From Candidatus Sericytochromatia bacterium (lineage in GTDB: Bacteria; Cyanobacteriota; Sericytochromatia; UBA7694): 64,000 nt of DNA. Shown here piece after piece: positions 9,735 to 33,066 of the stretch (the first letter of the stretch is position 1; each line of letters starts with the position of its first letter). A program made the position numbers and the translations under genes. The stretch is from the NCBI GenBank assembly GCA_015272195.1, contig JACYMC010000023.1, forward strand, positions 5,352-69,351, written 5' to 3'. The notes beneath the pieces were generated by a model. It was not told the DNA's origin, ran no database searches, and saw nothing but the letters and a program-made list of their open reading frames with translations.

Positions 9735-9741
9735 TCGCCTC

Positions 9742-10503: not shown

Positions 10504-10505
10504 GA

Positions 10506-11156: not shown

Positions 11157-11159
11157 CGT

Positions 11160-11711: not shown

Positions 11712-11714
11712 GCG

Positions 11715-12878: not shown

Positions 12879-12926
12879 GATAGGGATCCTTTGAAGTTCT
12901 TATTCTGCTTCATATTATTCATCATT

Positions 12927-13865: not shown

Positions 13866-13923
13866 GCTGCACGTCTTTCTTTCTTAACATCTCTTTACAA
13901 ATTACAGCAAGAAGTGTGGCGGG

Positions 13924-15174: not shown

Positions 15175-15300
15175 AAGCTGTATATTAACCGATTCTCCAG
15201 CCAGACAAAAGTCAGAGGCATTTTCACAATCCCCGCTCAAGAATGCTATCATGCATAAAATCCGAAAACTAAAAATCAAGCACAATCAGGTGAGGTTTTA

Positions 15301-16173: not shown

Positions 16174-16215
16174 TTTGGATTCAGGGATCGCAACATGCGC
16201 TCGAAAAACTGAGAC

Positions 16216-16644
16216 ATGAAAGCCCCTGAGAACAAACTGTTTAATCTGGTCCCTCATCTGGGTGTTCAGCACATTTTAATCTGGACACCCAGTGAATCCA
16301 GCTTCCGAATCGTCGAACGGATCTTAAACAAGTTGGAGAACATTGAAATACACTGGCACAGCCAGGTCATCGACGCACTGGCCGATGTTTTTATGCGTCG
16401 GCCACCTCTGGTGGTTATTTTTGGTGATACCAACACCGAAAGCCTTGAGTTTGCACGCCTGATCAGAAATCACCAGGACTTTAAAAAAACACCTTTGTTT
16501 ACCATTCTGCCCGAAAACATCAAGCTGCAAACACGCCTGATTAAAAAGCTGGGTATTACAGAAGTCTTTCAGACACCTGTAGAGCCCGGTCGTTTGTTTA
16601 ACCGGACCCGTCAGATTATTTCAGAGTTAGAGACAAGCAGATAA
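16216..16644 (+). CDS. CheY-like receiver-fold protein, degenerate (no obvious DD acidic pocket)
   Basis: 142 aa with receiver-like spacing: 'PLVVIFGDTN', 'TPLFTILPE', 'K...ITEVFQTP'. Confidence 0.35.
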   Translation: MKAPENKLFNLVPHLGVQHILIWTPSESSFRIVERILNKLENIEIHWHSQVIDALADVFMRRPPLVVIFGDTNTESLEFARLIRNHQDFKKTPLFTILPENIKLQTRLIKKLGITEVFQTPVEPGRLFNRTRQIISELETSR

Positions 16645-16655
16645 AGCGATTGGCT

Positions 16656-17552
16656 TTAGCCACCCATCAGTGAGGCACCCATTTCTGGCAGGCGCTGAAT
16701 GCGATCAAGCCCGGCCTGAGCGTTCTCATTATCTGGATCAATCAACAGGATCTGCTGATAGGTTTCCTGGGCTTTTTCAAGATTGCCCTGCTCTTCATAA
16801 AGAATGCCACAGAGCTCATAAACCTGCATGGTTTCAACCCCTGCTTCAAGTGCCCGCTCCAACAAAGGCAAGGCTTCAGCGTGGCGGCCAGTTTCAATAT
16901 AAATAATGCCCAGACGCACCAAAGGGGTTAACAGCTCAGGCTCGTCTTGATGCAAACGCTGAAGCTCACGCTCGGCAGCGTCATAACGCCCCATCCGGCG
17001 GTAAATTTCAGACAGTAAGATTCTGGACTCCTGATGCCTGGGAAACAGGCGCAGCGCATCCAGAACATTGGCCATTGCAGGGTAATGGTCACCCATCTCC
17101 ATATAAATAGAACCCAGCATAAACGCAGCCTGAAAGGTATTGCCATTTAACTTGAGAACACGCTCAAAAGACTGACGGGCTTTTTCAAGGTTTTGGGTCT
17201 GGCCATAAAGAATACCCAGATTGATATGGACATCGATATTCTGAGGATCCAGCTGGGCCGCTTTGGTATAGGTTTGCTCAGCCCTGACCAGATCACCGAG
17301 CATAAACTGGGCGCTGCCAAGGTTAAGATAGGCGTGAAACATGCGGTCGTCGTACTGAATGGCCTTATGAAGGTAATCCAGCGCTTCCTGCAGGCGCTGT
17401 TGTACAAGCGCAATCATACCAAGATTACAACAGGCGGCTGCAGAGCGGGGCTCTGCAGCCAGAACAGACTCAAAAATCGCCTGCGCCGTCTCTAAATCCT
17501 GCTGCTGAAGCGCTTCAACGCCTTCATGAATACGTTGTTGCAAATCAAGCAT
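16656..17552 (-). CDS. TPR repeat protein (last gene of the novel operon)
   Basis: Repeated 34-aa units (A..Y..A....G....A). 5-nt gap from the upstream gene. Confidence 0.7.
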   Translation of the reverse strand: MLDLQQRIHEGVEALQQQDLETAQAIFESVLAAEPRSAAACCNLGMIALVQQRLQEALDYLHKAIQYDDRMFHAYLNLGSAQFMLGDLVRAEQTYTKAAQLDPQNIDVHINLGILYGQTQNLEKARQSFERVLKLNGNTFQAAFMLGSIYMEMGDHYPAMANVLDALRLFPRHQESRILLSEIYRRMGRYDAAERELQRLHQDEPELLTPLVRLGIIYIETGRHAEALPLLERALEAGVETMQVYELCGILYEEQGNLEKAQETYQQILLIDPDNENAQAGLDRIQRLPEMGASLMGG

Positions 17553-17557
17553 AATGG

Positions 17558-18076
17558 TTAGGAAAGTGTACGGTTAAAGGACAGGTCAGTCGCAGACTCC
17601 CCAGCTTTCAAAGCGGTGGGCTTCTGTTCGAGAGACATTTCGCTTTCCTGTTTTTTCTCCTGAACTTTTTTCTGCAGGGCGTTCATGTCTTCTGTCAACT
17701 GCGCCAGAATTTTAGAAAACTCAGCAAAGAGCTCATCGACACTGACAGCATCAGGTGTAGGGGCCAGGTTAATCTGGTCTTCAAGGGCATTGGCCTGGGC
17801 CACCAGCGCACTGACTTTGGAGCTGACCAGGGCAGCGGCCTGCTGCAGATCAACCATCTCGGCATTGGACTGGGGCGGCGCAGAGCTGGCGGCGTTCAAA
17901 ACGCTACCCAGCTGAGCAAAAAGCTGACCGGCAGCACCTGTAGGCTCGGCACTGGGCTGTCCACCACTCTGCTGAGCTGACTGAGCCTGCTGCTGCGAAG
18001 CATTCACCTGTTGCTGAGCCTGGGCCAGGGCATTGGTCGTGTTCACCATTTCTGTCAGTTTACTTAAATCAATCAT
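17558..18076 (-). CDS. Gln/Ala-rich coiled-coil protein
   Basis: 172 aa with heptad-like segments. 13-nt gap from the 1181-aa gene. Confidence 0.45.
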   Translation of the reverse strand: MIDLSKLTEMVNTTNALAQAQQQVNASQQQAQSAQQSGGQPSAEPTGAAGQLFAQLGSVLNAASSAPPQSNAEMVDLQQAAALVSSKVSALVAQANALEDQINLAPTPDAVSVDELFAEFSKILAQLTEDMNALQKKVQEKKQESEMSLEQKPTALKAGESATDLSFNRTLS

Positions 18077-18089: not shown

Positions 18090-21000
18090 TTAATTGCTAG
18101 CCACTAATTTATCTTGTACCACAGATATACTCTGCTTGGTCTGATCATAAGTCAAGGTCAGCGCACCTTCCAGACTCATGCCGTTGGGCAGACTGGTCTG
18201 ACTGGTGATCGCCAGCTGGTTGAGATTACTCAACAGACCCAGCTTGAAGATATCCCGGTATTTTTCCTGATTCAGAATCCCAATCAAAATTTCCACAAAA
18301 TTGTTGGCCGCCTTATTTGAAGAACCCGTTGTTTCTTTTGAGCTCGACAGCCTGGCAAGTTTGCTTGCGTTATCGTTTTCCACCGACAAAGGCACCATTC
18401 GCGTTTGCCAGCGGCTCTGAACCTTCAGTGTTCCTGGCCTGACAAACTCTGGCGCATATTTGGCTGCAGCCAGGTCATCATAGCCCGTAATCACTTTGGC
18501 ATTGATCAGCGCGTCAACCTCAGGTTCGTTACCCGTACCGGTTGTGACACGGATCCCTTCTCGGTAGTTATTGACACCTGCTGAGTTGATAAATGTCCCG
18601 TCTGAGGCCTGAATCGAAATGGTATTCAGACCTTCCTGCAGATAAGGCGCCATATCAAAGGTGTAATTGACATCACGTATATCGGCAGGGTAAGCGCCGC
18701 CAATAAGCGGAGCCGTTGGCGTCACCAGCACTTCGCGGCCATTAATAAAAATCTTGGGCTGGTCGTTCCCTGTACCATAATGAACCCCTGTCAGGTCAAT
18801 ACTGACATTGAACGCTTTTTTGGTATAGGTCGGACGCACCCGGCCTGTGGCGTCGGTGATCCAGTTGGTCGGGTTCTCCAATTCCAGCAAATCATCTGGC
18901 TTCAGGTGAAAGGTATTGCGGGCCTGGATCACCTGTCGGGGAGAGTTGAGCTTGCCGTAACCCGCAGCTCCGCCCACAACTTCGTCATCGTCATAGCTGT
19001 AAAGCGTGTCTTTGACCAATGGGAACCAGATAAAGCCGTTATCAGGATCACCGGCATTTGTTGTGGCCAGCAGCTCTGACTGGTACCAGTCCGTGGGCAC
19101 GGCATTGGCTGCATTGATCTCCATCACTGACGGTGGCTCAAAGTCAACGATATTGCGACTCATTTCATAAGAGCGCATCACGCCTTCATACTTGCCGATT
19201 TCAAAGCCCCCCAGAATGGGGTTGGCTTTTTTGCTGTCATTGCTGACCACGTTCAGGCCATTAAAGCTATGAATCTTGTGCAGCCCCTGAATAAACTCCC
19301 CGTTAAAGCTGTCGGTCATATTGCCCGTAGAGCGGGAAATACTGTCATTGGGATTATTGGCAGTCGGGTCAGCGTCGGGAACCCAGTCATAGCTTTTGCT
19401 CGCGTCCACCGCATTCGAGCGGGCCAGACCACCATGCACGTACATTTTACCGGTACCGTCACGCTCAATGTCATTAACCGCCGTGGTCAGGTCGTCGACG
19501 TTGGTGCGCTTGTCATTGTTAAACTCCGCTGTGCGGGTTTCTACAATGTAATGGTTAAAGAACAGCGAGCTGGTAATTTGCCCTCTGGCATTCACGCGGG
19601 TCACGTCATCCACAAGCTCGGTCTCATCAACCGTAATATCGGTGTTCAGGCCGCCGCCTGCCTCAGTCGACCGCTCCCCCATATCGACCTTGTGCTTAAA
19701 CACGCTGCCCAGCTGAATATTGGTATCAAAGAGCCGCACGGCACCGCCGCCACCGGCCTGAACTTCAACATCATAGGCCTGATTGGCGGGTGGGGTTCTG
19801 AGAATAGTTCCCTGATACCCACCGGCAGGGTCAAAGACAGGTAAGTTTACCGGGGCGTCAAGTGTTGCCACACCATTAGCATCTATAGCAATAATCGTGC
19901 GTGTTTCATCAATCGCAGGCTGTGGCGGCCCGGTATCCTGAATTCGAATTTGTGTACTTCCGGGCACGAAAGACGGAGGTATTGTGCCTAGCCGAACTTC
20001 AATAAAGTTGGGTGGAGGGCCTGCTTCTGCAGGCGTCACAGTCACAGATGTGGGAATCTGTGACGCCATCTCCAGCAAGGTGACCGGTCCAGACAAGGTG
20101 ACCACACTGCCAGCAATGCTCTGAATCACACGGGTCTGACCATCAATCGTCAGGGTATCACCAGCGCTCATGCCTGCCGTAGAGCCAAGTGTCAACTGAA
20201 TATATTCAGGCGGGTCATTAGGCGCTCCTGCTGCAGCAGAGACTGTCGTGGTGGTATTAATGGTTGATGTTGAGGTAACCTGCCGGGCATGACTCTGATA
20301 CACAATCCCGTTTTCAAGATAGGTACCCACCACATTACCGCCGACACCATTGGTATTGGAAAACAAGCCTTCATAGACATAGGTGCCACTCTGAAAGATC
20401 AGGCCGTCCACAATCTGAACTTCCCCGTCTGATACATCGGCGTTGTTACGCCAGAGGCGTGTACCCACGTCTGTGGCCACAAGATCCTGATTCAGATTAA
20501 GCTCGTTTTTCTGAGACTGGGTTAAACCCGCGGCGTTCCAGCTCTCTGGATCCAGCCAGGCTTTCTGACGGTTGACCACGGTAGTGTAATCCTGGCTGGT
20601 GCCTGAGCGCTCCAACTGATAACCTTCAGTTGGATCCGTGCTGACCCAGGCCACGCGCTGCCCCGCATCATCTCCCGAAAGGGGATAAGTCTGGTTGCGA
20701 CTGTCAGGTACATCCGTCAGATGGACCAGTTCACCGTTGATCAGGTAGTTGTCATTGCCCGCTTCGTCTGAGTTGGCCGTATAACCCACGGCGTAACTGT
20801 ACTGAATCTCACGCGGTGCAAAGTTGTACAGATAGTTGACCGTAGACCAGAAGGCCCCTGTATTAAAAGTGGTTGTTTTCTGTTCCAGCTTCTGGTTGAA
20901 GTAGGTTGGCGGGGGCGGCCCCCCTGTGATCAGAGAGGTAATACCCTGCAAAAACCCAAGAAAGCCTGGAACAGGTGCAGGCTCAGGCGGATCGTCTTCC

Positions 21001-21635
21001 ACGCGCATGGTGACAAAAATATCACCGCTGACATTGCCTGCAGCCGTGGCACTGTCTGTCAGAGAACGAAACTCAACGTTGCGGCTTCCGGCCAGCGCAC
21101 GGCCATAGCCAAAGTAACCATCATCAGCAGCGACAATCCCGTTTAAACCGTCCTGAAGATTGCCAGAATAGCCCACAGGCGCACGCCAGATGTCATTGCC
21201 ATCGTTGTCTGTCCCAAAAACCATGCCACGCTGGTCAGTGGGTCTGACACCCAGGTCTTCAAAGCCCGTCATACCTGCAATGCCTTCAATAATTTGTGCG
21301 TTATCATTGCCGTCCAGCACAACGTCTGCGCGCAGATTGGTTGCAGCACCTTCACCAATTTGCTGGGAGGTGGACACATTGAGCAGATCGGCATAGGCTT
21401 CCTGCAGTTGTTTGGTCAGCTCATTCAGGCGGTTCTGCATTTTGGCGCGATACTGATCGTTAAAAGCCTTTTCCCATTGATAATCGAGAGACGAGCGCAA
21501 CACAAAAGCGGTTTCAAGCGTGGAAGGGGTAAAGCTGCCACCCGCAACCGGCTTACTCGCCAGGCGCAATGTCGGGGATTTATTGCTGGTCAGGTTCATG
21601 GCCTGAGTGCCCACGTTAAATGCAGAAAAGCTCAT
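18090..21635 (-). CDS. Giant protein of unrecognised family (1181 aa); N-terminal helical 'DQYRAKMQNRLNEL' motif shared with operon paralogues; Gly/Thr/Asn/Asp-rich centre
   Basis: Uninterrupted 3.5-kb ORF co-directional with its neighbours. No signal peptide. The internal plus-strand ORFs are short antisense artefacts. Confidence 0.6.
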   Translation of the reverse strand: MSFSAFNVGTQAMNLTSNKSPTLRLASKPVAGGSFTPSTLETAFVLRSSLDYQWEKAFNDQYRAKMQNRLNELTKQLQEAYADLLNVSTSQQIGEGAATNLRADVVLDGNDNAQIIEGIAGMTGFEDLGVRPTDQRGMVFGTDNDGNDIWRAPVGYSGNLQDGLNGIVAADDGYFGYGRALAGSRNVEFRSLTDSATAAGNVSGDIFVTMRVEDDPPEPAPVPGFLGFLQGITSLITGGPPPPTYFNQKLEQKTTTFNTGAFWSTVNYLYNFAPREIQYSYAVGYTANSDEAGNDNYLINGELVHLTDVPDSRNQTYPLSGDDAGQRVAWVSTDPTEGYQLERSGTSQDYTTVVNRQKAWLDPESWNAAGLTQSQKNELNLNQDLVATDVGTRLWRNNADVSDGEVQIVDGLIFQSGTYVYEGLFSNTNGVGGNVVGTYLENGIVYQSHARQVTSTSTINTTTTVSAAAGAPNDPPEYIQLTLGSTAGMSAGDTLTIDGQTRVIQSIAGSVVTLSGPVTLLEMASQIPTSVTVTPAEAGPPPNFIEVRLGTIPPSFVPGSTQIRIQDTGPPQPAIDETRTIIAIDANGVATLDAPVNLPVFDPAGGYQGTILRTPPANQAYDVEVQAGGGGAVRLFDTNIQLGSVFKHKVDMGERSTEAGGGLNTDITVDETELVDDVTRVNARGQITSSLFFNHYIVETRTAEFNNDKRTNVDDLTTAVNDIERDGTGKMYVHGGLARSNAVDASKSYDWVPDADPTANNPNDSISRSTGNMTDSFNGEFIQGLHKIHSFNGLNVVSNDSKKANPILGGFEIGKYEGVMRSYEMSRNIVDFEPPSVMEINAANAVPTDWYQSELLATTNAGDPDNGFIWFPLVKDTLYSYDDDEVVGGAAGYGKLNSPRQVIQARNTFHLKPDDLLELENPTNWITDATGRVRPTYTKKAFNVSIDLTGVHYGTGNDQPKIFINGREVLVTPTAPLIGGAYPADIRDVNYTFDMAPYLQEGLNTISIQASDGTFINSAGVNNYREGIRVTTGTGNEPEVDALINAKVITGYDDLAAAKYAPEFVRPGTLKVQSRWQTRMVPLSVENDNASKLARLSSSKETTGSSNKAANNFVEILIGILNQEKYRDIFKLGLLSNLNQLAITSQTSLPNGMSLEGALTLTYDQTKQSISVVQDKLVASN

Positions 21636-21743
21636 GGGGTATGCTCCTTGGATAGATGTTCACTCGTCTCTTATCCTGCGAGAGGCCTATCTTCTGTCTG
21701 AACTAAAAGAAGTTTTAATATAAAGCCAACACAGAACTAACAA

Positions 21744-21768
21744 GCCCGAACAGTTGTCCTGTTCGGGC
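21744..21768 (-). terminator. Perfect 10-bp stem hairpin (GCCCGAACAG-ttgtc-CTGTTCGGGC) between the two giant genes; candidate partial terminator or attenuator
   Basis: Lies 14 nt downstream of the 1559-aa gene's stop on the transcribed strand. Followed by a T-rich stretch (TTGTTAGTTCTGTGTTGGCTTTATATT). Confidence 0.3.
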
Positions 21769-21781
21769 TGAAGTCGGTCAC

Positions 21782-24700
21782 CTATTTGGCTGGCGTGGCC
21801 GGCGGGCGCTTAAAGGCGTAAAAGGAGCTGAGATAAATCTCCGCCATCGCCCGGTTGGTGTTTTTAAAGACATCATAAGTACCGACCAAGCCGGGTTCAC
21901 GCAGCAGATTCTGGGTTACAGAGGTGCCGTCTGCACGGGTCACAGTGCGCGTCCCTGCAATTTCTTCCTGCCGGCGTTCTTCGTAATCACCAAAATTGAC
22001 CGGCACTGCCGCTGAAGTCGCGGCAGTGCCGATCTGACGAAACTTAATCCGAATCGATGAGGTGACACCGCCGCCTGTGGTCGCATTGGCCGAGGCCGTC
22101 AGGAACATATCGTCCAAAAATCCGTTGTTAAACACGTCGCGGTATTCTCTGACCAGTTGGGCATTGGAGCCATCTGATTTGAGGTGCATATGTTCATAAA
22201 GCACTCTGGTCAGGGGGTTTTCAACCCCGATGGTGCTTTCACCCAGAGCCTGAGTCAGATTGTTCTGGTCAACGCGGGCCAGCAGCATGCGACCGCCCAG
22301 CACAGGCGCCAGCGCCTGGTTGGCTGTGAGATTGATCGCTGTGCTGTCGAGGCCTTTGACATTCAACGTATAATCGTAGCGACGATCATAGTACTTTTGC
22401 CCGCCGTGAAGTTGCAGAATCACGTTACTGCGGCCATCCACATCACCAGTGACCCCCACACGCACGGTGTTTGCGTTGACCGCAGCAGCCCCTTTGGCAG
22501 TGGCGTCCGCTGCGTTAATAAAGGTGCCAAAGTATTTATCGTGATAGTAGCCTGTCCGGAAGCTCTGCAGATTCAGGGGGGATGCACCATCATAATTGCG
22601 ACCCACAATGCGGCCATGCGAGCCCACATAGCGATCAATATGGGTGGTAACATTGGGCGTCAGACCACTGAGACCCTCACTCACCGCACCGTTATAGTCC
22701 ACCACATTTTTACGCACATAAACTTCGTTGATATCGCCCATGCCCGTATCGTCCCAGAAACCACGTTTGATATCCCAGTTGTCATCATAACGAGTGGTAT
22801 CACCCTCATGACGACTCAGCTCATGGGCTCTGCGGCCATCGATGCCAAAGGCGGCGCCATAACCCTGGCGGCCGGCAGCGCCGTCAACACCAGTTAAGAA
22901 GGGTTTATAACGACGGGTATTGGCCATACCGTTAAGCACCTGGTTAGGCAATTCAAAGGAACCCGTGCCCCACTGGGCCAGCGCACCGATAGCGCCCAGC
23001 TGACCGCCGTCGCGGGTGGTATTGTAGTCATAAGCAAACAGTTTTTTCTCGTCTTCAATAAAGTCATAACCTTCGGCTGTCAGACTGCTGCTGCTGATGC
23101 GATCGGAGGTCACAAAACCTCTTTCATTCTGATCGCGCAGCAGCAGATCCCACATCATGTTTTCATTCAATTGCTGCTGATAAGAGGACAGCATCAGGTC
23201 CAGCACGCTCAATACCACAGCCCAGCCCATACTGGGCGGGCCCGCATTCAGCCTGCCCGCAGCCGCGAAAATGGCTTTGTTGAGAAACTTCATGATCTCT
23301 TTGCCCGTGAGGGCCAGCATCCGCAGGGTATCCATATTGGCGATTTCTTCGTTCTGGTGCGTGCCAGTCCAGTAAGAATAACTCAGATCATTGAGCTGAA
23401 ACTGCGACAGAAAGGCTGCTGTCGAGAAGAATGCACCCGTATCCAGCTCACGGGCTTCGCCCGCATTCATACTATGACGCTGTTCACCACCAAAGACTCC
23501 ATCTTCGCGTAAATTATAATCATTGATAGTATATGAGTTGATACCCAATAAACCCTTGGCCTGATCCAGAAAACCGCCTAAATCAAAAATGCCAATGAGC
23601 TCGGGCATTTTTTGAAGGGTGGACCAGGCTGTTTTTTCGGTAAAGTGGTATTCACCGCGCATGCCATAGCTGTCCATGGCATAACCACCGCTGGTGGCAT
23701 AAGAATAGGCCGAAACGCTATCGATCACCTCATGCTTCATGGCATCCAGAAATTCATGCATATAATCCGTCAGAATATCGTAAGAAGCGGCACCATATGT
23801 GGTCATGGGCAGGTTCAAAAAGAACACACCCGCCATGGGAATGGGAATCGGAATCGGGATGTTAAGATCTGCGTGAAAGCCTCCGATCCCGACGTTGGGG
23901 AAGTAACTGATATCGTCCTTACTGGCGCCACCAATATTGGCCAGAATCCCCAATGACAGGTTCATGGCCTGAAGGGCGGGACCAATATCCCCCCCCTGAC
24001 CGCCGGAGTTATCCATCAGGTCCTCTACCTTGCCAATCGTACCAATGGCTGAAGTGTGGCCCCAGTAAATGCCGCCAACCCCGGCACCAATGGCTGTGCC
24101 GCTGAAACTGTAAGCCGTCGAGGTGCCGTCCAGGTCAACAATCCCCTTGGAGTCAGAGCCGCCGCCCACATGAAAGAAAGGGCCGCCCAGCAGGTTATTG
24201 GCCACATCGTCCAGACGACCCAGCGCCAGACCGGTTGCAATCGCTTGCAGGGCAAAGCCTTCGATCGGCGGAGAAAGGGTCATGGCTGAGATCATTGAGC
24301 TGCTTTTGGCGTAAGGGTCATACCACAAAACAGGCGAAACCTTAAGATGCGAGGAGATGGTCTCAGCATCATATTTGACTGGCGCAATGTCTTTTGTGCC
24401 CGGTGTGGCGGTTTCAGCACCTCCGGGCACAAAACCCGGCGCGTAGTCCCATTGACGTCCCACAAAAAGATTGCTGATCACATCCATGGTGTTGCCACCA
24501 AAGGCGCTTTTGGTGGTATCAACCAAATCGTCTGTACCGTTATCATCATTTACATCCGGCTGGCCATTGGACTCAGCTGCACCTACAGGAATAGGTACAT
24601 AAAGTTTAGAATCACCAATACTTGTGCGCGGGGTTGGCGGTGGCGGCGCCGGCGGGCCAGGCGTGCTGACCGGGGGCAAAGCCGGTGGCGCAGGAACACT

Positions 24701-26461
24701 GCCGACCGGGTCTGCCATCATTTCGAGACGCTTATTGAGAATCGAATAAATACTGGCTTCTGAACTGGGGGTTTTGGGACTGCTATAGTCTGCACCAACC
24801 TGGTATACAGAGTTGATGGTACCCTCAAAGGTACTGGGTGGCGTGTAGTAATAGCCATAGGGAACCATACCGCTGATAGGGCTGACGTTGTCCAGATAAT
24901 TACTCGGGGCATCAGGATGTGGGTTGACTGGCGGCAGCGGAGGGGTACCGGGCGGATAGTTACTGGGCGGGGAGGTAGGCGCTGTCACCGAGCCTTTGGC
25001 CAGCTGGTCAATGCCTGAGAACACCTGGTCCATAATCTGATCATAGGTATAGTCAGGATTCTTTGCTTTGATGTCACCCGCATTATCCACATACGCTTTA
25101 TAAGCAGCTTCTATCTGCGCTTCACGCTTCTGGATCTGACGGGCCTCATACCAGGAGTCTAGAAAACCCTGCTGATAAGGCGGCAAATGCCCTTTGCTGG
25201 CATTAAAATCCTGTTCATCCAGGGTCGCGCCCAAAGGCTGGGCCAGCTTGGGATTCAGCGTGATGCCGCCGACCGTACCGGAGCCATAAGGAAACGAGCC
25301 TGGATCCGGTGCAAACAGACGCTGATTAGACACACCTGGATCAGGGTCAACAAAGCGAATGCCGTTGTTTAAGGTGTAAATACCGCTGCCAGGCGATGTT
25401 TCAGTAAAGTCGCCATTCGTCATGCCATGACCACCTGCTACAATGGCGTCGCGCTGGGCTGTTGTAAATTGCATGGTCGTTGGATTGCTGTTACTCGTAA
25501 TAAAAGTCGGCAACAGAGCAAAATCCGTTGATGTCATGCCATTAAAGGTTTCAATATAATAACGGTTACTGGCATTGGAACGCACAAAGTTACGGGTATC
25601 TGTCGAGGGCGGCACGTTCATGTTCTTGGCAATTTCTTCAAACCAGGCGTTGCTGTTAACGCCGGGGTCATTCAGATCGTAAGCGTAAGGGGATGGGACT
25701 GGTCCTGCATTGGTGCGCCAGAGGTCATAATACTGGTTGTCAGCAGCACCGTCGCTGGTCACATAGCCCGTGCTGTCAACAGGTGCTTTGTAGTGAGGCC
25801 CCTTAAAAGTGGGGTAGGCCACAGGATCATCTGCTGGTATCAGGCTGCCATTAATTTGAACTTCTGCAGTACCGTCCCCGTCCATATCCTGAAGAGGGGC
25901 CTGGCTGTTGATGTAGCGGCGAATATCGTTGTAAGCATCACTTGTACCGCCATACGCCTGCTTATCGGGGCCGAACCAGTCCGGGTGGGCGTACAGATTG
26001 TTGTCTATTTCTTCCACTTCGTTGGGCGGGTTGTCAATCACGGCACCTGAATAAAAAGCCAGGGGCGTTTCGGCGCTGATATCATTGCGATCGCGGTTGG
26101 CATTGGGCGCCCAGCGTTCGTCGGGGCGCATGGGCGCATAGATACTGTTTTCAAGGGTGCGCACATAAGCCCGGTTCAGCTTTTTTTTGAGTGCTTCAGC
26201 GCGCAGGCTCAAAACGGCACGGTACTCGTTATACCAGGTCTGGGCAAAGCTGTTCTGGGCATCGCGGTCATAGGTGGTCTGATACTCGCCAGAGGTGAGC
26301 TGAAACATGCCCTGGGTACGGTTTTCGAGCCGTAAAAAATTGCCATTGGGACTGGCATAATTCGACAGGACAGCCTGCAAGCCCTGGCCAATATCCCGCT
26401 GACCGCCTCCCAGAAAATCTCTGAAAGACTGTCCTGAACTTCCAAGCTGCCCGATTGACAT
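21782..26461 (-). CDS. Giant protein of unrecognised family (1559 aa); N-terminal 'YNEYRAVLSLRAEAL' and C-terminal 'AEIYLSSFYAF' motifs shared with the tandem paralogues; Pro-rich 'PPPTPRT' and 'PIPIPIP' segments
   Basis: Uninterrupted 4.7-kb ORF, no signal peptide, Gly/Asn/Thr/Tyr-rich. Confidence 0.6.
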   Translation of the reverse strand: MSIGQLGSSGQSFRDFLGGGQRDIGQGLQAVLSNYASPNGNFLRLENRTQGMFQLTSGEYQTTYDRDAQNSFAQTWYNEYRAVLSLRAEALKKKLNRAYVRTLENSIYAPMRPDERWAPNANRDRNDISAETPLAFYSGAVIDNPPNEVEEIDNNLYAHPDWFGPDKQAYGGTSDAYNDIRRYINSQAPLQDMDGDGTAEVQINGSLIPADDPVAYPTFKGPHYKAPVDSTGYVTSDGAADNQYYDLWRTNAGPVPSPYAYDLNDPGVNSNAWFEEIAKNMNVPPSTDTRNFVRSNASNRYYIETFNGMTSTDFALLPTFITSNSNPTTMQFTTAQRDAIVAGGHGMTNGDFTETSPGSGIYTLNNGIRFVDPDPGVSNQRLFAPDPGSFPYGSGTVGGITLNPKLAQPLGATLDEQDFNASKGHLPPYQQGFLDSWYEARQIQKREAQIEAAYKAYVDNAGDIKAKNPDYTYDQIMDQVFSGIDQLAKGSVTAPTSPPSNYPPGTPPLPPVNPHPDAPSNYLDNVSPISGMVPYGYYYTPPSTFEGTINSVYQVGADYSSPKTPSSEASIYSILNKRLEMMADPVGSVPAPPALPPVSTPGPPAPPPPTPRTSIGDSKLYVPIPVGAAESNGQPDVNDDNGTDDLVDTTKSAFGGNTMDVISNLFVGRQWDYAPGFVPGGAETATPGTKDIAPVKYDAETISSHLKVSPVLWYDPYAKSSSMISAMTLSPPIEGFALQAIATGLALGRLDDVANNLLGGPFFHVGGGSDSKGIVDLDGTSTAYSFSGTAIGAGVGGIYWGHTSAIGTIGKVEDLMDNSGGQGGDIGPALQAMNLSLGILANIGGASKDDISYFPNVGIGGFHADLNIPIPIPIPMAGVFFLNLPMTTYGAASYDILTDYMHEFLDAMKHEVIDSVSAYSYATSGGYAMDSYGMRGEYHFTEKTAWSTLQKMPELIGIFDLGGFLDQAKGLLGINSYTINDYNLREDGVFGGEQRHSMNAGEARELDTGAFFSTAAFLSQFQLNDLSYSYWTGTHQNEEIANMDTLRMLALTGKEIMKFLNKAIFAAAGRLNAGPPSMGWAVVLSVLDLMLSSYQQQLNENMMWDLLLRDQNERGFVTSDRISSSSLTAEGYDFIEDEKKLFAYDYNTTRDGGQLGAIGALAQWGTGSFELPNQVLNGMANTRRYKPFLTGVDGAAGRQGYGAAFGIDGRRAHELSRHEGDTTRYDDNWDIKRGFWDDTGMGDINEVYVRKNVVDYNGAVSEGLSGLTPNVTTHIDRYVGSHGRIVGRNYDGASPLNLQSFRTGYYHDKYFGTFINAADATAKGAAAVNANTVRVGVTGDVDGRSNVILQLHGGQKYYDRRYDYTLNVKGLDSTAINLTANQALAPVLGGRMLLARVDQNNLTQALGESTIGVENPLTRVLYEHMHLKSDGSNAQLVREYRDVFNNGFLDDMFLTASANATTGGGVTSSIRIKFRQIGTAATSAAVPVNFGDYEERRQEEIAGTRTVTRADGTSVTQNLLREPGLVGTYDVFKNTNRAMAEIYLSSFYAFKRPPATPAK

Positions 26462-26493
26462 AAAATAAGCTCCTTTGTCTTAAGTTTCCAGCG

Positions 26494-27669
26494 CTAGCAA
26501 TGATAAAAGGCGCTGAAGCGATCGATTGAAAGATTGATGCGTCCCCCCAGATCTGGACGATCAGGGTTTTCCGGAACGAAGTTAAGAAACACACTGGCCT
26601 GGGCCTGAGAGCCCGAAGGTAGGGAGGAAGTTGATGCCACCTGCATATCACTGAAGAAGCCGTTTTTCTCAGACAAACGAAAAATATCGCGCAGCAAATT
26701 ACGCTGATCTAACTCATAAATGGCATCATACAGCACCTTTTGAAACTGATTTTTAGCCCGGCCTGTCGCATTAAAAGCTTCATAGCTTTGGGTCTCATTG
26801 ACCCAGTCCAGATTATTCATGTTTCCTGTATCAGCAGCTCCAGCCACGTTTTGAGGCAGGTTATTATTGGTATAGACAATGTTCTGGGCATTAGAACGGT
26901 AGTTAGGGATGGAGGGGGCTGGCGGAGTATTTGCCACATCAATAAAACGATAGCGGTTCTGATGGGAGATAAAACCGCCACCCACTTCGCGATAAGCCAC
27001 AGTACGCCCCCCATGATTCACTTCAAGGGAGTCGATCAAGCCTTCGGTTTCGGCTTCCATATGAAAAGACTGCTGAATAGTAGCCGTACCAAAAACACGC
27101 ACAGTGGCTTCATCGCCATTGCCTGCACCCAGACTGCGAAAGAAAATCGCATCGGCGGAAGCGTCCGGGGTGACGCGATTCCTCCCATCAAAGTGGGGTA
27201 CTCCGACATAAGGTTCAGAAGTTACAGAGCCCCCGGCAGGGTTGACCCCCTGGGCATAACCCGTCATAAAGTTATAGGCCACACGGGCAGCACCAGCATC
27301 CTGCAAACGATCGGTAAATCCCTGAGAAGCGGAACGATCATTCCAGGCCGCACGGGTTCCTTCTAAAGCTGTATCCAGGTCACGCGTCAAAGCAGCCGTC
27401 AAATCAGTAATCAACTGCTGAATTCGTGAGCGCAGCAGAGCCTGGTATTCAAACAGAAAGACGGTACTGTTGTCGTTTTTTTGATCTTGCTGCATCAGCA
27501 CATTCAAATAGGAGCTGGTGTAATCCAAAAAGCTGGAGGCTGTATCGGGATTGGCCAACTGCCGATATCTATCCAGATTGCTGGACATATCCGCCAGTTT
27601 AAACGAGGTGGGGTCCTGTTGAAACTGCTGTTGCATATTGTTGCTGCCCAGACCAAAGGTAAACGTCAT
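26494..27669 (-). CDS. Paralogue A (391 aa) of the conserved-termini family
   Basis: Shares 'VFLFEYQALLRSRIQQLITDLTAALTRDLD', 'DAGAARVAYNFMTGY', 'KNQFQKVLYDAI', 'SSLPSGSQAQASVFLNF' and '...FSAFYHC' with the adjacent 332-aa protein. Confidence 0.6.
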   Translation of the reverse strand: MTFTFGLGSNNMQQQFQQDPTSFKLADMSSNLDRYRQLANPDTASSFLDYTSSYLNVLMQQDQKNDNSTVFLFEYQALLRSRIQQLITDLTAALTRDLDTALEGTRAAWNDRSASQGFTDRLQDAGAARVAYNFMTGYAQGVNPAGGSVTSEPYVGVPHFDGRNRVTPDASADAIFFRSLGAGNGDEATVRVFGTATIQQSFHMEAETEGLIDSLEVNHGGRTVAYREVGGGFISHQNRYRFIDVANTPPAPSIPNYRSNAQNIVYTNNNLPQNVAGAADTGNMNNLDWVNETQSYEAFNATGRAKNQFQKVLYDAIYELDQRNLLRDIFRLSEKNGFFSDMQVASTSSLPSGSQAQASVFLNFVPENPDRPDLGGRINLSIDRFSAFYHC

Positions 27670-27730
27670 ATAAAAGACTCCTGCATCGTCATTGATTCAA
27701 AGCACTGCCTGTCATGTGGATGTGCGTTGC

Positions 27731-28729
27731 TTAGCCCGAAGCATAATAGGCCGTCATCTTATCGAGAGAAATATGGAGGTTACCGCCATCCTGGGCACCT
27801 TCAAAACTCAGATTAAAGCTTGCCTGGACCTGTGATCCCGTGGGTAGACTCGAGCTGGCAGCCACGACCAGATTTTTAAACAGGCCTGAACTCAGCACCG
27901 CTCGGTATTCAACACTTGAGACCGCATCAAATAAAACTTTCTGAAACAAATTCTTGGCATTTCGTGCACGGGCACCTGCACCAAGTGGCCCGCTGAAACT
28001 ATTATCCAGAACATTGTGATCGGCTGTAGGCGCTGCGTCATCCGCATTTGTATTTGTATAAATAAAAGTGGGGGCCGCACCGCGCAAGTCACCAATTTGA
28101 AGCGTGTCAATCACCCGACTGTTACCGTTTGCGGGCAAGGGGCCAACAGTGACCAGCGTTGCCGTACCTGCAGCTCTCAGCGTGGGTGTGCCCCCACCAT
28201 AAGCGACACCTTCAAAAGTACCGTCAAAACCTTCTGCCTGCTGGACAGAGCCAGGCACAGGCGGCGGCCCAGGAACGAAGGCGCTGCCTGTTAAAGCGGG
28301 TGTGGCACCGGCAGACACGGTGGAAGAGCTCATCCAGCCCATCATAAAGTTATAAGCTGTACGGGCCGCACCGGCATCTGCAACTGTGGGCGTTGAGAGA
28401 CCGTTCATGGCGGGTTTGGGCGTACCGCCCCAGCGTGGGTTGGCCGCACTCATCGCCACATCCAGATCAGAGGCCAGGGCGTTGCTGAGCTGGGCAATCA
28501 GGGTCTGAATACGGGAATTCAGCAGGGCACGGTATTCAAACAGGAAGATCAGGTTGTCGTCATTCTGCTTATCGGTTTCTTCTTTTTTGAGGATTGCGCG
28601 GCTGGTAGGGTTCCAGACAAAGCCACTTGAGACACTGGCCATGCCCGTTGCCGTTGTGGTCAGACGCTGATTGTGCACATCGGCAGTTGTGAGCTTGACG
28701 CCCAGTTGCACGTTGCCAATTCCGGCCAT
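27731..28729 (-). CDS. Paralogue B (332 aa) of the conserved-termini family
   Basis: 'LIFLFEYRALLNSRIQTLIAQLSNALASDLD', 'DAGAARTAYNFMMGW', 'KNLFQKVLFDAV', 'SSLPTGSQVQASFNLSF', '...MTAYYASG'. The middle region is divergent. Confidence 0.6.
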   Translation of the reverse strand: MAGIGNVQLGVKLTTADVHNQRLTTTATGMASVSSGFVWNPTSRAILKKEETDKQNDDNLIFLFEYRALLNSRIQTLIAQLSNALASDLDVAMSAANPRWGGTPKPAMNGLSTPTVADAGAARTAYNFMMGWMSSSTVSAGATPALTGSAFVPGPPPVPGSVQQAEGFDGTFEGVAYGGGTPTLRAAGTATLVTVGPLPANGNSRVIDTLQIGDLRGAAPTFIYTNTNADDAAPTADHNVLDNSFSGPLGAGARARNAKNLFQKVLFDAVSSVEYRAVLSSGLFKNLVVAASSSLPTGSQVQASFNLSFEGAQDGGNLHISLDKMTAYYASG

Positions 28730-28786: not shown

Positions 28787-29455
28787 TCAGGTGTTGTTAC
28801 GGTAAGCTGCAGAACCATTAACGGTTGTATCGTAATGAAACATGCGACTGATGGATCCGACTGAGCCCCAGTTATAAAACGAAGCATAGTTAATGGTCGA
28901 ACCATCCTGACGGTTATAAAAGCGCTGATCCGTCCAGCGAGGCGTAAAGGAATCACGATACATAATCGCACCACGACCACCCATGGCCGAGCCTTCTTCG
29001 GCGCCATCAAAAAACTCGCCATTGCCGGTAAAGCCTGCCTGAACAGTCCACTGCGCAAAAGTAGCAGCAACAGCACGCCATTGCAACTGAGCCTCCTGAC
29101 GCTTGAGAATAAATTCCGTGATGGACCGGATCACGTCGATAATATCGCGCGTATCGGTTTTACTGAGGACTGCTAGAAAGGTACTGACCGCTGAAGAAAC
29201 GAGTTTCATGCCGCCTCCCGCCGTCATCTCAGCCAGAGAGCCCTGGGCATCCACCTTTTTGCGGATTTCTGCAGCCAAAGCATTGGCGGCCTGAAAGCGC
29301 GACTGGATCAGCTGCTCAGCGTTATCCTGACCTTTGATGATATTCTGGCCCAGCGCTTGATTTACCGAGTTAAAAAAGCTCGGGATCTTTTCTTTGACGT
29401 CTTCCTTGGAGCGAGCCGCCAGAGCATCTGAGCGCATTGCTTGGATTGCGGGCAT
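28787..29455 (-). CDS. Hypothetical protein (222 aa), part of the novel operon
   Basis: Helical N-half, Gly/aromatic-rich C-half ('FYNRQDGSTINYASFYNWGS'). Co-directional with short gaps to its neighbours. Confidence 0.45.
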   Translation of the reverse strand: MPAIQAMRSDALAARSKEDVKEKIPSFFNSVNQALGQNIIKGQDNAEQLIQSRFQAANALAAEIRKKVDAQGSLAEMTAGGGMKLVSSAVSTFLAVLSKTDTRDIIDVIRSITEFILKRQEAQLQWRAVAATFAQWTVQAGFTGNGEFFDGAEEGSAMGGRGAIMYRDSFTPRWTDQRFYNRQDGSTINYASFYNWGSVGSISRMFHYDTTVNGSAAYRNNT

Positions 29456-29475: not shown

Positions 29476-29949
29476 TTAGATAAAGGGGTTGGCATTCAAT
29501 GCCTGTACCGCTTTATCAGAGCCAACGCGCATGATATTCAGGCGCTTCATATCTTCTTCAACCGCTTCAAGTTCAGCATTGGCTTTGCTGATATCGAGCA
29601 GCTTGGTGATCACGTTACCGACACCATTCACAATATCGGCCCAGCCGGACTTTTTGCTGTCACCGCTCGGACGGGTGCTGTTGACGACCGTGCCCAGCAG
29701 AGACACCACAGCCGCTGCGGCAGCAATTTTAGCCGCTTTTTTACTTGCATCAGCAGCAATTTCTTTAAATCTGAGGTCAGCCGCTTTGAGATCAAGATCA
29801 GCTTTTTCTTCGGCGCGCGCGTCCTTTTCGGCCATCACACTGGTGGTGATCAGGTTGTTGTTGCGCAGCATGCGCTGTTGTTCAACAGCAGTCAGCCCAA
29901 GTTCTGAAACAGCGCGGGTCATGTTTCCGGCAGAAGCCCATGCAGTCAT
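29476..29949 (-). CDS. Hypothetical coiled-coil protein with a central hydrophobic (possibly TM) segment; first gene of the novel operon
   Basis: 157 aa. 'KKAAKIAAAAAVVSLLGTVVN' hydrophobic stretch. An AAGGAAG Shine-Dalgarno sits about 10 nt upstream of the ATG. Confidence 0.45.
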   Translation of the reverse strand: MTAWASAGNMTRAVSELGLTAVEQQRMLRNNNLITTSVMAEKDARAEEKADLDLKAADLRFKEIAADASKKAAKIAAAAAVVSLLGTVVNSTRPSGDSKKSGWADIVNGVGNVITKLLDISKANAELEAVEEDMKRLNIMRVGSDKAVQALNANPFI

Positions 29950-30156: not shown

Positions 30157-33066
30157 ATGCACAGCCATATTCATATTAAAAATGCCAATGAGCACAACCT
30201 GAAACAGGTCAGCCTGCATCTGCCGCGCAACCAGATGATCGTTTTTACCGGGGTCAGCGGTTCAGGCAAATCGAGCCTGGCTTTTGACACCATTTTTGCC
30301 GAAGGTCAGCGGCGTTATGTGGAGTCCCTCTCAGCCTATGCGCGCCAGTTTCTGGGCCAGATGCAAAAACCGGACGTTGAAAGCATCGAAGGGCTCTCGC
30401 CGGCCATCTCGATCGATCAGAAGTCCACCAGCCACAATCCCCGCTCCACGGTCGGCACGGTGACGGAGATCTATGACTATCTGCGCCTGCTCTATGCCCG
30501 CATTGGCATCCCCCACTGCCCGGACTGCGGACAGGCCATCCGCTCCCAGAGTATCGATCAGATCGTGGATCAGGTCACAGCCCTACCAGACGATACCCGA
30601 CTGTATATTCTGGCCCCCCTGATCCGAGGGCGCAAAGGCGAGTACAAAAGCCTGCTGGATAACCTGCAGCGCGAAGGCTTTACCCGTGTCAAGGTGGACG
30701 GCGCTTACCGGGAGCTGGACGAAGACATTCAGCTCAGCAAAACCCACAAACACGATCTGGATCTGGTGGTGGACCGCCTCAAGCTCAAATCAGAATCCCA
30801 CACCCGCCTGACCGAATCCCTGCAGCTGGCGCTCGATAAAGGTGAGGGACGGGTACTGGTAGAAGCCATGGACGGGAGTTTCTCACAGCTGTATAACCAG
30901 AATCACGCCTGCCCGGACTGCGGTTTCAGCTTTCCGGAAATTTCACCGCGTCTGTTTTCATTCAACAGCCCTTTTGGGGCCTGTGCTGACTGCCATGGCC
31001 TGGGCTCACGCCAGGAAATCGCCGTCGATAAGATTGTGCCCGACCCTGGCCTGAGTCTGAACCAGGGCGCCATTCGCCCCTGGGCCCGCAGCCTGGATCA
31101 GTCGGGCGGCTCTTATTTAAAGACCCTGCTGACCAGCCTGCAACAAGAGCTCCATTTTTCGCTGGATACCCCCTTTGAAAAGCTGCCCAAAAATATTCAA
31201 AAGGTCCTGCTGCATGGCCACGACAGCCGCATCAAGGTCGATTACCAGAGCCAGAGCAAAGGGCAGATGCAGTACAGCTTTTACACCCGCTTTGAAGGGG
31301 TAATTCCCCGTTTGCAGCGCCTGTATGCTGAAAGCAACTCCGAAGCCAGCCGCAGTGAAGCCGAGCGCTACATGGAAAAACTGCCCTGCGACAGCTGCCA
31401 CGGCCAGCGCCTGCAGCCCGCCAGTCTGGCGGTCAGGGTACAGGGCCACAGCATCGCTGACGTGACCGATCTCTCGCTGGAAAAATTTGCCCGCTGGCTC
31501 GAAAACCTCGATCTGAACGCCCGCGAACGCCTGATCGCGGAGCTGATTCTACGCGAGCTCAAAGAGCGCAGCAGCTTTCTGCTGAACGTGGGGCTGGACT
31601 ATCTCAGCCTGAACCGCAGTGCCAACACGCTGTCAGGCGGTGAGGCCCAGCGCATTCGCCTGGCCACCCAGATTGGTTCGGGCCTGGTGGGCGTGCTGTA
31701 TATTCTGGATGAACCCAGTATCGGCCTGCACCAACGCGATAACCGCCGCCTGCTGGATACGCTCAAGCGCCTGCGGGATCTGGGCAATACCCTGATTGTG
31801 GTCGAGCATGACGAAGACACGATCACCGAGGCGGACTACCTGGTGGATATCGGCCCCCTGGCCGGCCGCCACGGCGGGCAGATTGTGGCCCAGGGCAATC
31901 TGGAAACCCTCTGCAACACCCCGGAATCGCTGACCGGTCAGTATCTCAGCGGTCAGAAGCGCATTCCTGTGCCTGCCAAACGACAGGCTGGTAACGGCAA
32001 AGCCCTGACAATCCGGGGCGCGCGCAAAAACAACCTCAAAAACATTGATGTCAGCATTCCGCTCGGTCAGCTGATCTGCGTCACCGGCGTCAGTGGCTCA
32101 GGCAAATCGACCCTGATCAATGAAATTCTGGCGCCTTACGTGGAGCATCACCTGCACCGCAACCAGCCCCGGCCGCTGGATGTGGACGCTGTCGAAGGCC
32201 TGGAGCATCTCGACAAGCTGATCCGCATTGATCAGTCTCCCATCGGGCGCACGCCCCGCTCCAACCCGGCCACCTATACGGGCTTGTTTACACCCATCCG
32301 CGAACTCTTTGCCCAGAGCGTGGAAGCCAAAATCCGGGGCTATAAACCCGGACGCTTCAGTTTCAACGTCAAAGGCGGACGCTGTGAATCCTGCCAGGGC
32401 GACGGCATGCTCAAGATTGAAATGCACTTTTTGCCCGATGTCTATGTGCCCTGCGAAGTCTGCAAAGGCCAGCGCTATAACCGCGAAACCCTGGCCGTGC
32501 TCTGGAAAGGCGCCTCGATTGCCGACGTGCTCAATATGACCGTCGAAGAAGCCCTGGAGCACTTTGACCAGATTCCTGCCATCCAGCGCAAGCTGCAGAC
32601 CCTGATGGATGTCGGCCTGAACTATATCCAGCTGGGCCAGGCCGCGACCACCCTCTCCGGCGGCGAAGCCCAGCGGGTCAAGCTGGCCACCGAGCTGAGC
32701 AAGCGCAGCACGGGGCAGACCCTCTATCTGCTGGATGAGCCCACCACCGGCCTGCATTTTGCTGACGTGGCCAAACTACTGGAGGTCATGCTGCGCCTGG
32801 TGCGCAAGGGCAACACCGTCCTGGTGATTGAGCATAATCTGGACGTGATCAAGGTCGCCGACCACCTGATCGATCTGGGACCGGAAGGCGGCCATCGGGG
32901 CGGACAGGTGCTGGTGCAGGGCACGCCCGAAACCGTGGCGGCCCATCCAGAGTCTTTTACCGGCCAGTTTCTGAAGCCTTTGCTTAACACAAAAGCATCT
33001 GCCAAAAGTAAGCCCACTGCAGCGCCTAAAAAAAAGGTCAGCCGTAAAAAAGCGCGCTCAGCCTGA
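30157..33066 (+). CDS. uvrA: Excinuclease ABC subunit A
   Basis: 969 aa. Two ABC modules ('[10 protein letters not shown]', 'LSGGEAQR' twice, '[10 protein letters not shown]') plus zinc-finger cysteines 'CPDCG...C', 'CESCQGDG'. Confidence 0.95.

Follow-up and report, generated by a model that had tools for sequence, protein, structure and literature searches.

The described systems that come closest to the locus treated here are the flagellar axial proteins, the tip and translocon proteins of type III secretion systems (T3SS), the type IV pilins with their tip adhesins, and the RTX-type giant adhesins and surface-layer proteins of cyanobacteria. Flagellar axial proteins are co-encoded paralogues of very different size with conserved termini and a variable or expanded middle; they lack cysteine and a Sec signal, and small acidic helical partners are encoded nearby. 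The T3SS tip and translocon operons (lcrGVH-yopBD, ipgC-ipaBCD, sicA-sipBCD) comprise genes for two small or medium-sized helical proteins with hydrophobic segments, for proteins of ~330 amino acids (aa) with a long central helix, for large secreted proteins and for a TPR protein, and classical signal peptides are absent. Type IV pilins and tip adhesins (PilY1/PilC) combine a long N-terminal helix with a variable region and a beta-rich C-terminal part and include large adhesin-like members, while RTX-type adhesins are large, acidic and cysteine-free, have no N-terminal signal and possess a conserved extreme C-terminus. All these traits have counterparts in an operon which we analysed in a 64,000-nucleotide (nt) stretch of DNA (hereafter the window) from a Candidatus Sericytochromatia bacterium (GenBank assembly GCA_015272195.1, contig JACYMC010000023.1, positions 5,352 to 69,351). 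The Sericytochromatia are the non-photosynthetic sister lineage of the oxygenic cyanobacteria, and to our knowledge no member of the lineage has been cultured.

The operon consists of eight co-directional open reading frames (ORFs) on the minus strand, located between uvrA (30157-33066, plus strand) on one side and a receiver-like gene and sucD on the other. In gene order, the products comprise 157, 222, 332, 391, 1559, 1181 and 172 aa, followed by a TPR protein of 298 aa. The intergenic gaps measure 5-61 nt, which is consistent with a single operon, the one exception being a gap of 146 nt after the gene for the 1559-aa protein (21636-21781). Four of the ORFs, those for the proteins of 332, 391, 1559 and 1181 aa (18090-28729), had been singled out in an original prediction made from the DNA letters and a list of ORFs, and their lengths and coordinates were given correctly.

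At the level of sequence, profile comparisons establish that these four proteins are paralogues sharing an N-terminal helix and a C-terminal module. The 332- and 391-aa proteins, here termed the mid-size family, are paralogous over their full length (BLASTP E=1e-37). Between the small and the giant proteins BLASTP gives marginal matches (E 3e-4 to 2e-3; 3e-4 to 8e-4 for the 332-aa protein against the 1559- and 1181-aa proteins), which are collinear, N-terminus to N-terminus and C-terminus to C-terminus. Such pairwise values would by themselves allow for a chance or compositional likeness of helical segments, an explanation which we consider refuted by the following results and whose probability is practically negligible.

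Orthologues were collected from 10 species-representative genomes, metagenome contigs and protein databases, and 863 six-frame ORFs of the window and of 10 related loci served as search space. The motif [EQ]Y[RQ]A.[LM]..R[IAL]..L is confined to the four families among these ORFs, always lies within residues 61-80, and has an expectation of zero matches in shuffled sequences. Hidden Markov models (HMMs) were built from the N region (residues 40-135) and the C region (residues 250-332) of the 332/391 family. Directly below its own family, the N-region model placed every protein of the 1559 type together with half of the ten proteins of the 1181 type (E 3e-4 to 7e-3); the second half, including that of the window, scored E 0.19-7 and was interspersed with unrelated ORFs. 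The C-region model placed every 1559-type and 1181-type protein ahead of any other ORF (E 6e-5 to 0.03), and the matches of both models occupy the same relative positions throughout. The ranking is clean except for part of the 1181-type proteins, which score lower with the N-region model.

The comparison of profiles built from diverse alignments (hhalign) gave E values between 2e-4 and 8e-11, with one exception stated below, and the top matches were always collinear. The mid-size family matched the 1559 family with E=2e-8 for the N-terminal parts (95% probability) and E=3e-7 for the C-terminal parts (93%), and the 1181 family with E=8e-11 for the C-terminal (97%) and E=2e-4 for the N-terminal parts. 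The two giant families matched each other with E=3e-5 (C-terminal) and E=9e-5 (N-terminal), and they share a weak third motif in mid-protein, TGAF(W/F)S..N/FL..F....(L/I).YSY (E=6e-3); all remaining alignments among the paralogue families gave E values of at least 0.3. In the negative control, the small operon proteins aligned with the paralogue families at E values of at least 0.1. When the mid-size profile was searched against 1.84e9 representative proteins, a 1539-aa orthologue of the 1559-aa protein was found with a whole-library E of 7.5e-4. Taken together, the HMM ranking, the profile-profile comparison, the motif and the whole-library search confirm the common descent of the four proteins.

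Two patterns describe the family. The N-terminal one, EY[RQK]A.[LM]..[RK]...L, is part of a long helix (residues ~55-110); the C-terminal one, N.F..L....[YF].D....G[LF]......SS/A...G.Q/S...S, is followed by the terminal strands; all four window proteins and their orthologues contain both patterns in one chain. The stretch between the two parts varies in length from ~150 to 1300 residues. The C module comprises ~80 residues with the core N.F..L....YR.(I/V)F..GL.....V.A.SSL.TGSQ.QAS and two further strands. In the mid-size family the extreme C-terminus is nearly invariant, ...(D/E)R(F/W)(S/A)AF(Y/F)HS-COOH, and those of the 1181- and 1559-aa proteins are unlike it; the terminal F.A[FY] tail of the 1559-aa protein fits in position and is not significant alone, the HMM of this 18-residue tail being without statistical power. 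The claim of an N-terminal motif common to the four proteins was therefore sound, although the pattern as first written does not literally fit all four, as the 391-aa protein has Q in place of R and the offset of the leading [FY]-x was wrong. Likewise, C-terminal sharing had been proposed for three of the proteins on the basis of an aromatic motif; the sharing is real, extends to all four and has the ~80-residue module rather than the aromatic tail as its core.

An AlphaFold model of the 332-aa protein, based on a 55-sequence alignment (predicted local distance difference test, pLDDT, 70.6; predicted template modelling score, pTM, 0.66), contains helices at residues 6-31 and 41-94, the 54-residue helix 41-94 being its most confident part; the remainder is composed of a beta-rich variable middle, helices within residues 248-281 and three long strands within residues 287-328. 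The model of the 1181-aa protein is poor overall (pLDDT 52.3), yet it has the same pattern at its ends, namely a helix at residues 39-88, a helix at 1112-1131 and strands at 1140-1180. In both models the N-terminal motif, which is conserved in orthologues, is located within the long helix (41-94 and 39-88, respectively), as had been predicted, and in the C-terminal module a pair of short helices is predicted to precede three long beta strands. Of the design postulated originally, conserved terminal helices around a variable middle, the conserved modules, the N-terminal helix and the variable middle thus hold, whereas the C-terminal module is predicted to be of beta type. A heptad register of the N-helix, which had also been suggested, was not borne out: its hydrophobic period is 3.65-3.9, compared to 3.5 for a clean heptad, which indicates an amphipathic helix and no clean heptad coiled coil. 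The 332-aa model has no structural neighbour, and the profiles of five family alignments found no match among all PDB sequences. The 1181-aa model additionally contains a confident beta-sandwich at residues ~890-1100 with a weak resemblance to sugar-binding domains (Pfam E=0.02); Foldseek relates it to rhamnosidase N-terminal, GH2 N-terminal and CBM35 domains at E~1e-2.

The composition of the operon proteins is as characteristic as their termini. In the seven non-TPR families cysteine is nearly absent (14 in 36,620 residues), and the 1559 family contains none in 14,151 residues (nine sequences), compared to roughly 1.5-2% in the products of uvrA and two other neighbouring genes. These families are acidic, and Ser, Thr, Asn, Gln and Gly are abundant in them. 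The six putative structural proteins begin with a stretch of 9-40 residues that is free of acidic side chains; in the 172-aa protein and the TPR protein an acidic residue already occurs at position 3. Motif searches revealed no Sec, Tat, lipoprotein or prepilin signal and no LPXTG motif with a membrane tail in the operon proteins, and there is no hydrophobic N-terminal segment, the maximal Kyte-Doolittle score over 10 residues within the first 45 residues being 0.5-1.4. In the 222, 391 and 1181 families, insertions of domain size occur at fixed sites, which suggests that the middles are solvent-exposed.

Our preferred reading, to which we assign a probability of roughly 0.45, is that the operon products are exported and build a multi-protein structure at the cell surface or in the envelope, for instance a fibre, an appendage for adhesion or a device of the injection type. 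An export and structural role is supported by the conserved cysteine depletion, the acidic polar composition, the acid-free N-termini and the fixed-site insertions, and further by the Pro-rich linkers of the 1559-aa protein, the sugar-binding-like beta-sandwich of the 1181-aa protein, the hydrophobic helices of the 157- and 222-aa proteins and the confidently predicted N-helix. In such a structure the N- and C-terminal parts would fold into one unit that mediates subunit-subunit contacts, and the termini would plausibly form a putative polymer core. The repeating or shaft subunits would be supplied by the mid-size proteins, and the two giants would be specialised subunits, the 1559-aa protein with its conserved Gly-rich and hydrophobic core and the 1181-aa protein with its beta-sandwich as a possible adhesin. 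The 157- and 222-aa proteins would serve as membrane anchors of the structure or be inserted into a membrane themselves, and in the cytoplasm the subunits would be held unassembled by the TPR protein and the acidic protein of 172 aa. The export route would need no Sec, Tat or prepilin signal and would be encoded outside the operon. A more far-reaching version, in which the Sericytochromatia possess an undescribed self-assembling extracellular appendage with its own axial-like subunits, membrane-active proteins and chaperones, independent of flagella, injectisomes and known pili and served by an unrecognised export route, is put forward as a tentative possibility.

The same modules could instead constitute a shared targeting, chaperone-binding or anchoring cassette carried by four independent secreted proteins (adhesins, enzymes or toxins), by analogy with the LXG, PE/PPE, MIX and Rhs N-domains that mark cargo, with the small helical proteins and the TPR protein as possible adaptors. 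We regard this as the main rival and judge it unlikely on balance. A module joined to a "cargo" middle that varies, a composition free of cysteine and the lack of classical signals would fit it equally well, as would the co-encoded small helical partners and TPR protein and the sugar-binding-like domain of the 1181-aa protein; moreover, the centre of the 1559 family, its best-conserved part with many invariant charged residues, resembles an enzyme or functional domain rather than a spacer. However, cargo families usually vary in payload and copy number, whereas here the same four (or three) orthologues occur in fixed order in every genome examined; the module is split over both ends of the chain, which is typical of subunits with packed termini and unusual in a targeting domain; and the 332-aa protein carries hardly any cargo.

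Several points weigh against an exported surface structure itself. Polymerisation, secretion and localisation are inferred from sequence and models, the confidence of these models is only moderate (pLDDT as given above for the 332- and 1181-aa proteins), and the packing of the N- and C-terminal parts on each other is presumed. The operon contains no genes for a secretion machinery, and across lineages no such machinery is linked to it; neighbouring pilD-pilMNO-secretin genes are conserved in the two loci checked, yet the operon proteins have no prepilin signal. The period of the N-helix is unlike that of a classical coiled coil, and secreted proteins that stay unpolymerised could likewise be poor in cysteine and have conserved termini.

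The genes and their products are described in the following in operon order. The seven non-TPR proteins of the window have no Pfam or NCBIfam match, all matches listed at E<=1 being noise; scans of all cluster proteins against Pfam, NCBIfam and PHROGs, and of 32 mid-size and 12 1559-family members against Pfam, yielded nothing beyond generic TPR, and a scan of the operon against Rfam gave no match. The family was absent from every database searched, in agreement with the original statement that no family with this motif was known. Gene 1 (29476..29949, minus strand) encodes the helical 157-aa protein with an Ala/Gly-rich hydrophobic segment at residues ~72-90 and the conserved end ...ALDANP(Y/F). 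An orthologue is present in all loci that cover its position, and no match was found in Pfam, PDB or PHROG; the protein is a candidate membrane-inserting anchor or translocator. The product of gene 2 (28787..29455, minus strand; 222 aa) is likewise helical, with the conserved N-terminus MPAIQAMRSDALA, a hydrophobic segment at residues ~79-97 and the conserved C-region GGRGA.KYRD..TPRW. Some 222-type orthologues carry an insertion of 185-305 aa at residue ~150-158 and keep both termini, by which the pattern of conserved termini and variable middle reaches a fifth operon protein. Orthologues with such an insertion are found in loci L001 (346-1545; 399 aa) and L010 (7465-8994; 509 aa), and the inserts have no Pfam match. 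The 157- and 222-aa proteins, each with one moderately hydrophobic helix, show a weak collinear similarity over their hydrophobic cores (residues 77-140 and 78-139; hhalign P=1.5e-3) and may, judging from this alignment, be distant paralogues of each other.

Gene 3 (27731..28729, minus strand) encodes the smallest paralogue (332 aa), with its N module at nt 28439-28609 (residues 41-97) and its C module at nt 27737-27994 (residues 246-331; minus strand). In its paralogue, gene 4 (26494..27669, minus strand; 391 aa), the N module is located at nt 27355-27525 and the C module at nt 26497-26778 (minus strand), the end being ...DRFSAFYHC. Some 391-type proteins contain a module of 60-90 aa immediately ahead of the last strands. 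Gene 5 (21782..26461, minus strand; 1559 aa) has its N module at nt 26090-26389 (residues 25-124), its C module at nt 22034-22243 (residues 1407-1476) and the terminal AEIYLSSFYAFK at nt 21809-21844, all on the minus strand; besides the Pro-rich linkers, its product contains the very conserved Gly-rich and hydrophobic centre at residues ~750-1300. In contig_13863 of a metagenome-assembled genome (MAG; locus L010), two genes are each broken into a pair of ORFs, that of the 391 type into ORFs of 179 and 323 aa (10001-11512) and that of the 1559 type into ORFs of 940 and 693 aa (11527-16366), which reflects either frameshift errors of a long-read assembly or pseudogenisation.

The only long intergenic gap of the operon contains a GC-rich hairpin of 11 bp followed by a U-rich stretch (21743..21769, minus strand), 13 nt past the stop codon of gene 5, and the gap at the 1559/1181 junction is likewise long in orthologous loci (150-250 nt). 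The hairpin is a possible leaky terminator or mRNA stabiliser and may determine the amounts of upstream relative to downstream products. In locus L015 (188.7-kb JGI metagenome contig Ga0210039_1000031) an extra ORF of 348 aa (17026-18072) lies at the long gap between the 1559-type and 1181-type genes; its product has no similarity to the remaining operon proteins.

The product of gene 6 (18090..21635, minus strand; 1181 aa), the fourth paralogue, is 100% identical to hypothetical protein IGS03_01690, encoded on a 92-kb contig of a Candidatus Sericytochromatia MAG; its N module lies at nt 21357-21491 (residues 49-93) and its C module at nt 18099-18347 (residues 1097-1179; minus strand). The window protein and its closest relatives have a lineage-specific insertion of ~170 aa at residues ~450-623 (19770-20290), which is predicted to be beta-rich and possibly consists of two tandem modules. 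The observation on inserts also concerns proteins P0008, P0010, P0022, P0045 and P0046. The 60-90 aa module of some 391-type proteins looks similar to this insertion; the proposal that both are the same domain was dropped, as the support was marginal (E=5e-4 for one pair). Gene 7 (17558..18076, minus strand) encodes the acidic (isoelectric point 4.4), Gln/Ala-rich, helical 172-aa protein, a candidate chaperone or scaffold. It is kept in all Sericytochromatia loci covering its position; in loci L011 and L021 the slot is occupied by proteins of 178-184 aa that resemble each other and have no BLAST match to gene 7. Gene 8 (16656..17552, minus strand) encodes the 298-aa protein with TPR repeats throughout (~7), a candidate chaperone or assembly factor, which shares 62-68% identity with its counterparts in orthologous loci and 35% with that in L021 (GC content 32%), and is absent from L012.

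The order 157-222-332-391-1559-1181-172-TPR is kept in all Sericytochromatia and Blackallbacteria loci long enough to show it. Wherever flanks were fetched, uvrA is found on one side and the receiver-like gene with sucD (15301-16173) on the other; fixed order and flanks point to an old chromosomal operon that is vertically inherited and no mobile island. Divergent versions on contigs with a GC content of 28-43% are reduced or variant and have one or two mid-size genes: the order is 179-225-334-1588-1127-178 in L011, at least this type being labelled Candidatus Sericytochromatia at NCBI, 162-215-328-1315-1050-184-TPR in L021, and 154-178-308-362-1275-804-283-224 in L012, a 5.18-Mb genome with a GC content of 41% whose flanking genes differ from those of the Sericytochromatia loci. 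All named relatives are labelled as Candidatus Sericytochromatia, as Blackallbacteria or as members of a related lineage that is non-photosynthetic. Among the complete or near-complete genomes with the operon are GCA_053550095.1 (contig JBMQPV010000012.1), JADMKE010000004.1, ERZ21878443 contig_1 (5.18 Mb) and a 3.56-Mb contig with MFN8671457.1. Members of the family are rare: the 391-aa query found 54 proteins among 5.8e9, the mid-size profile 38 matches among the 1.84e9 representative proteins, and JGI metagenomes yielded 15 loci in 241 million records. We found nothing relevant in the literature on motility, flagella, pili or secretion of Sericytochromatia, nor on their cell biology or way of life.

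The housekeeping surroundings (uvrA, sucD) and the strict vertical synteny would also suit an intracellular or periplasmic scaffold, cytoskeleton-like or envelope-spanning, that never crosses the outer membrane, as would the lack of a signal peptide of known type and of a secretion system within the operon. We nevertheless hold such a scaffold to be improbable: the cysteine depletion is extreme and conserved in comparison with neighbouring cytoplasmic proteins, and the Pro-rich linkers, the Ser/Thr/Asn-rich composition, the sugar-binding-like domain and the insertion hot spots are traits of surface proteins.

The receiver-like gene (16216-16644, plus strand; 142 aa), situated between the TPR gene and sucD, is arranged tail-to-tail with the TPR gene. 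Its resemblance to CheY-type receivers was judged by eye from the sequence, and no Pfam match was found at E<=1e-5; its position is conserved in eight of the ten species-representative Sericytochromatia loci and in L029. Type IV pilus assembly genes (8115-13865, minus strand) lie 3.5 kb past the operon and comprise a prepilin peptidase gene (pilD, 12927-13865, minus strand), pilM (11715-12878, minus strand), then pilN, pilO and an unassigned gene for a 253-aa protein, and a secretin gene (8115-9734, minus strand); in its annotated parts the window showed neither a pilin gene nor one for a pilus ATPase. Locus L029 (17241-22853), from another Sericytochromatia genome, has the same neighbourhood of operon, receiver-like gene, sucD, methyltransferase gene, pilD, pilMNO and secretin gene. 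Because synteny among the genomes is strong and the flanks of L012 differ, the proximity of the pil genes is no evidence of a functional link. Three paralogous proteins with TPR and GT41 (O-GlcNAc-transferase-like) domains are encoded in the window (33058-35073, 35070-37121 and 58193-60373), the first two just past uvrA and next to an ABC exporter gene (37354-38985); orthologues of 35070-37121 and of the exporter gene hold the same position in L004 and L010. These putative glycosyltransferases could glycosylate the Ser/Thr-rich operon products.

If the operon does encode a surface filament or injection-type device, the closest relatives of cyanobacteria without photosynthesis would possess a bacterial appendage of a new class. 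With its eight genes and the mid-size terminus ...AFYHS, it is a compact, conserved and easily recognised marker, and the 332-aa protein offers a tractable starting point for expression, electron microscopy and structure determination.

Compared with the known systems, the likeness to flagellar axial proteins, which the original prediction had emphasised, is valid as a design principle only. In contrast to these proteins, the operon family has no sequence, profile or fold similarity to them and no adjacent export apparatus; its C module has a helix-helix-three strands arrangement instead of a helix that pairs with the N-terminal helix, a D0/D1 coiled-coil core formed by two helical termini is absent from the models, and its N-helix lacks a clear coiled-coil register. 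The profiles Flagellin_N/C, Flg_bb_rod, Flg_bbr_C and FlgE/F/G D1 gave no match at E<=1 in the eight window proteins, in 32 mid-size members or in 12 members of the 1559 family, the 1181-type proteins scanned being the window and L012 copies. No HMM, PDB sequence or fold match to flagellar or type III secretion proteins was obtained, and flagellar genes or export apparatus were found neither in the annotated parts of the 64-kb window nor beside the cluster where flanks were examined, with the exception of one orphan in L012. This orphan, P0125 (456 aa; L012 20078-21089 = L028 10001-11371), is encoded two genes downstream of the cluster in convergent orientation and is of the FlgE/F/G type (PF22692 with 41.9 bits, cut-off 27; motifs of the rod type at both termini). 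It stands among metabolic genes with no further flagellar gene within 10 kb, a search of 5.8e9 proteins returned it alone, and no counterpart occurs beside the cluster in Sericytochromatia loci. The gene next to it (566 aa) encodes an unrelated lipoprotein.

The T3SS tip and translocon operons differ from the present one in their class II chaperone of ~160 aa with three repeats, compared to 298 aa and ~7 repeats in the operon TPR protein, which scores 55.4 bits with LcrH_SycD (TIGR02552; cut-off 104.8) and far higher with generic TPR families. No translocator or tip-protein match was found in Pfam, NCBIfam or PDB for the 157-, 222-, 332- and 391-aa proteins, and no injectisome genes were seen. 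These results bear on the idea that the four proteins share true homology, at extreme divergence, with the axial, tip or translocon proteins of flagella or type III secretion systems and are served by a flagellar-type export apparatus encoded elsewhere in the genome. The conserved-termini, variable-middle logic, the lack of cysteine, the acid-free, Ser/Thr/Asn-rich N-termini, the small acidic helical and TPR partners (the TPR protein with its LcrH_SycD score below the cut-off), the two small proteins with hydrophobic helices and the P0125 gene of one divergent genome are in its favour. Nonetheless, we rate it as very improbable, as flagellin, Flg_bb_rod and translocator HMMs gave no match at E<=1 in the members scanned, PDB sequence matches are absent, the C module is predicted to be of beta type, P0125 is an isolated gene without detected relatives, and the annotated parts of the window contain no flagellar genes.

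The type IV pilins are approached in overall architecture and in the pilD and pilMNO-secretin genes 3.5 kb away in the window and in L029. Unlike pilins, the operon proteins have neither a class III signal peptide (G|F/M...E5) nor a prepilin peptidase site, their N-helix is amphipathic instead of hydrophobic, no pilin is found among the listed structural neighbours, and the divergent L012 has other flanking genes. From RTX-type adhesins they differ in that GG.G.D repeats occur with only 0-1 matches per protein and that the 1181- and 1559-aa proteins do not end like the mid-size family with its conserved ...AFYHS. No linked set of ABC transporter, membrane-fusion protein and TolC is conserved across loci, no secretion genes occur between uvrA and sucD in loci with fetched flanks, and a MacAB-OEP set upstream of the cluster is present in L012 only. 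For Sec-dependent pili (chaperone-usher, sortase, type V), the hydrophobic N-region, the lipobox and the LPXTG motif with a membrane tail are all missing. Searches for phage tail, fibre and contractile injection proteins gave PHROGs noise only (best E=0.002, a head protein), the locus contains no phage genes, and its chromosomal position between uvrA and sucD is fixed.

All testable defining features of the known systems are thus lacking in the operon proteins. The family and its operon are real and conserved and have no detectable relative or known fold, which makes them new as a protein family and, probably, as an apparatus. On the soberest reading, they represent a new protein family with clear domain boundaries, in which the design of conserved termini and a variable middle has arisen outside the flagellar and pilin families.

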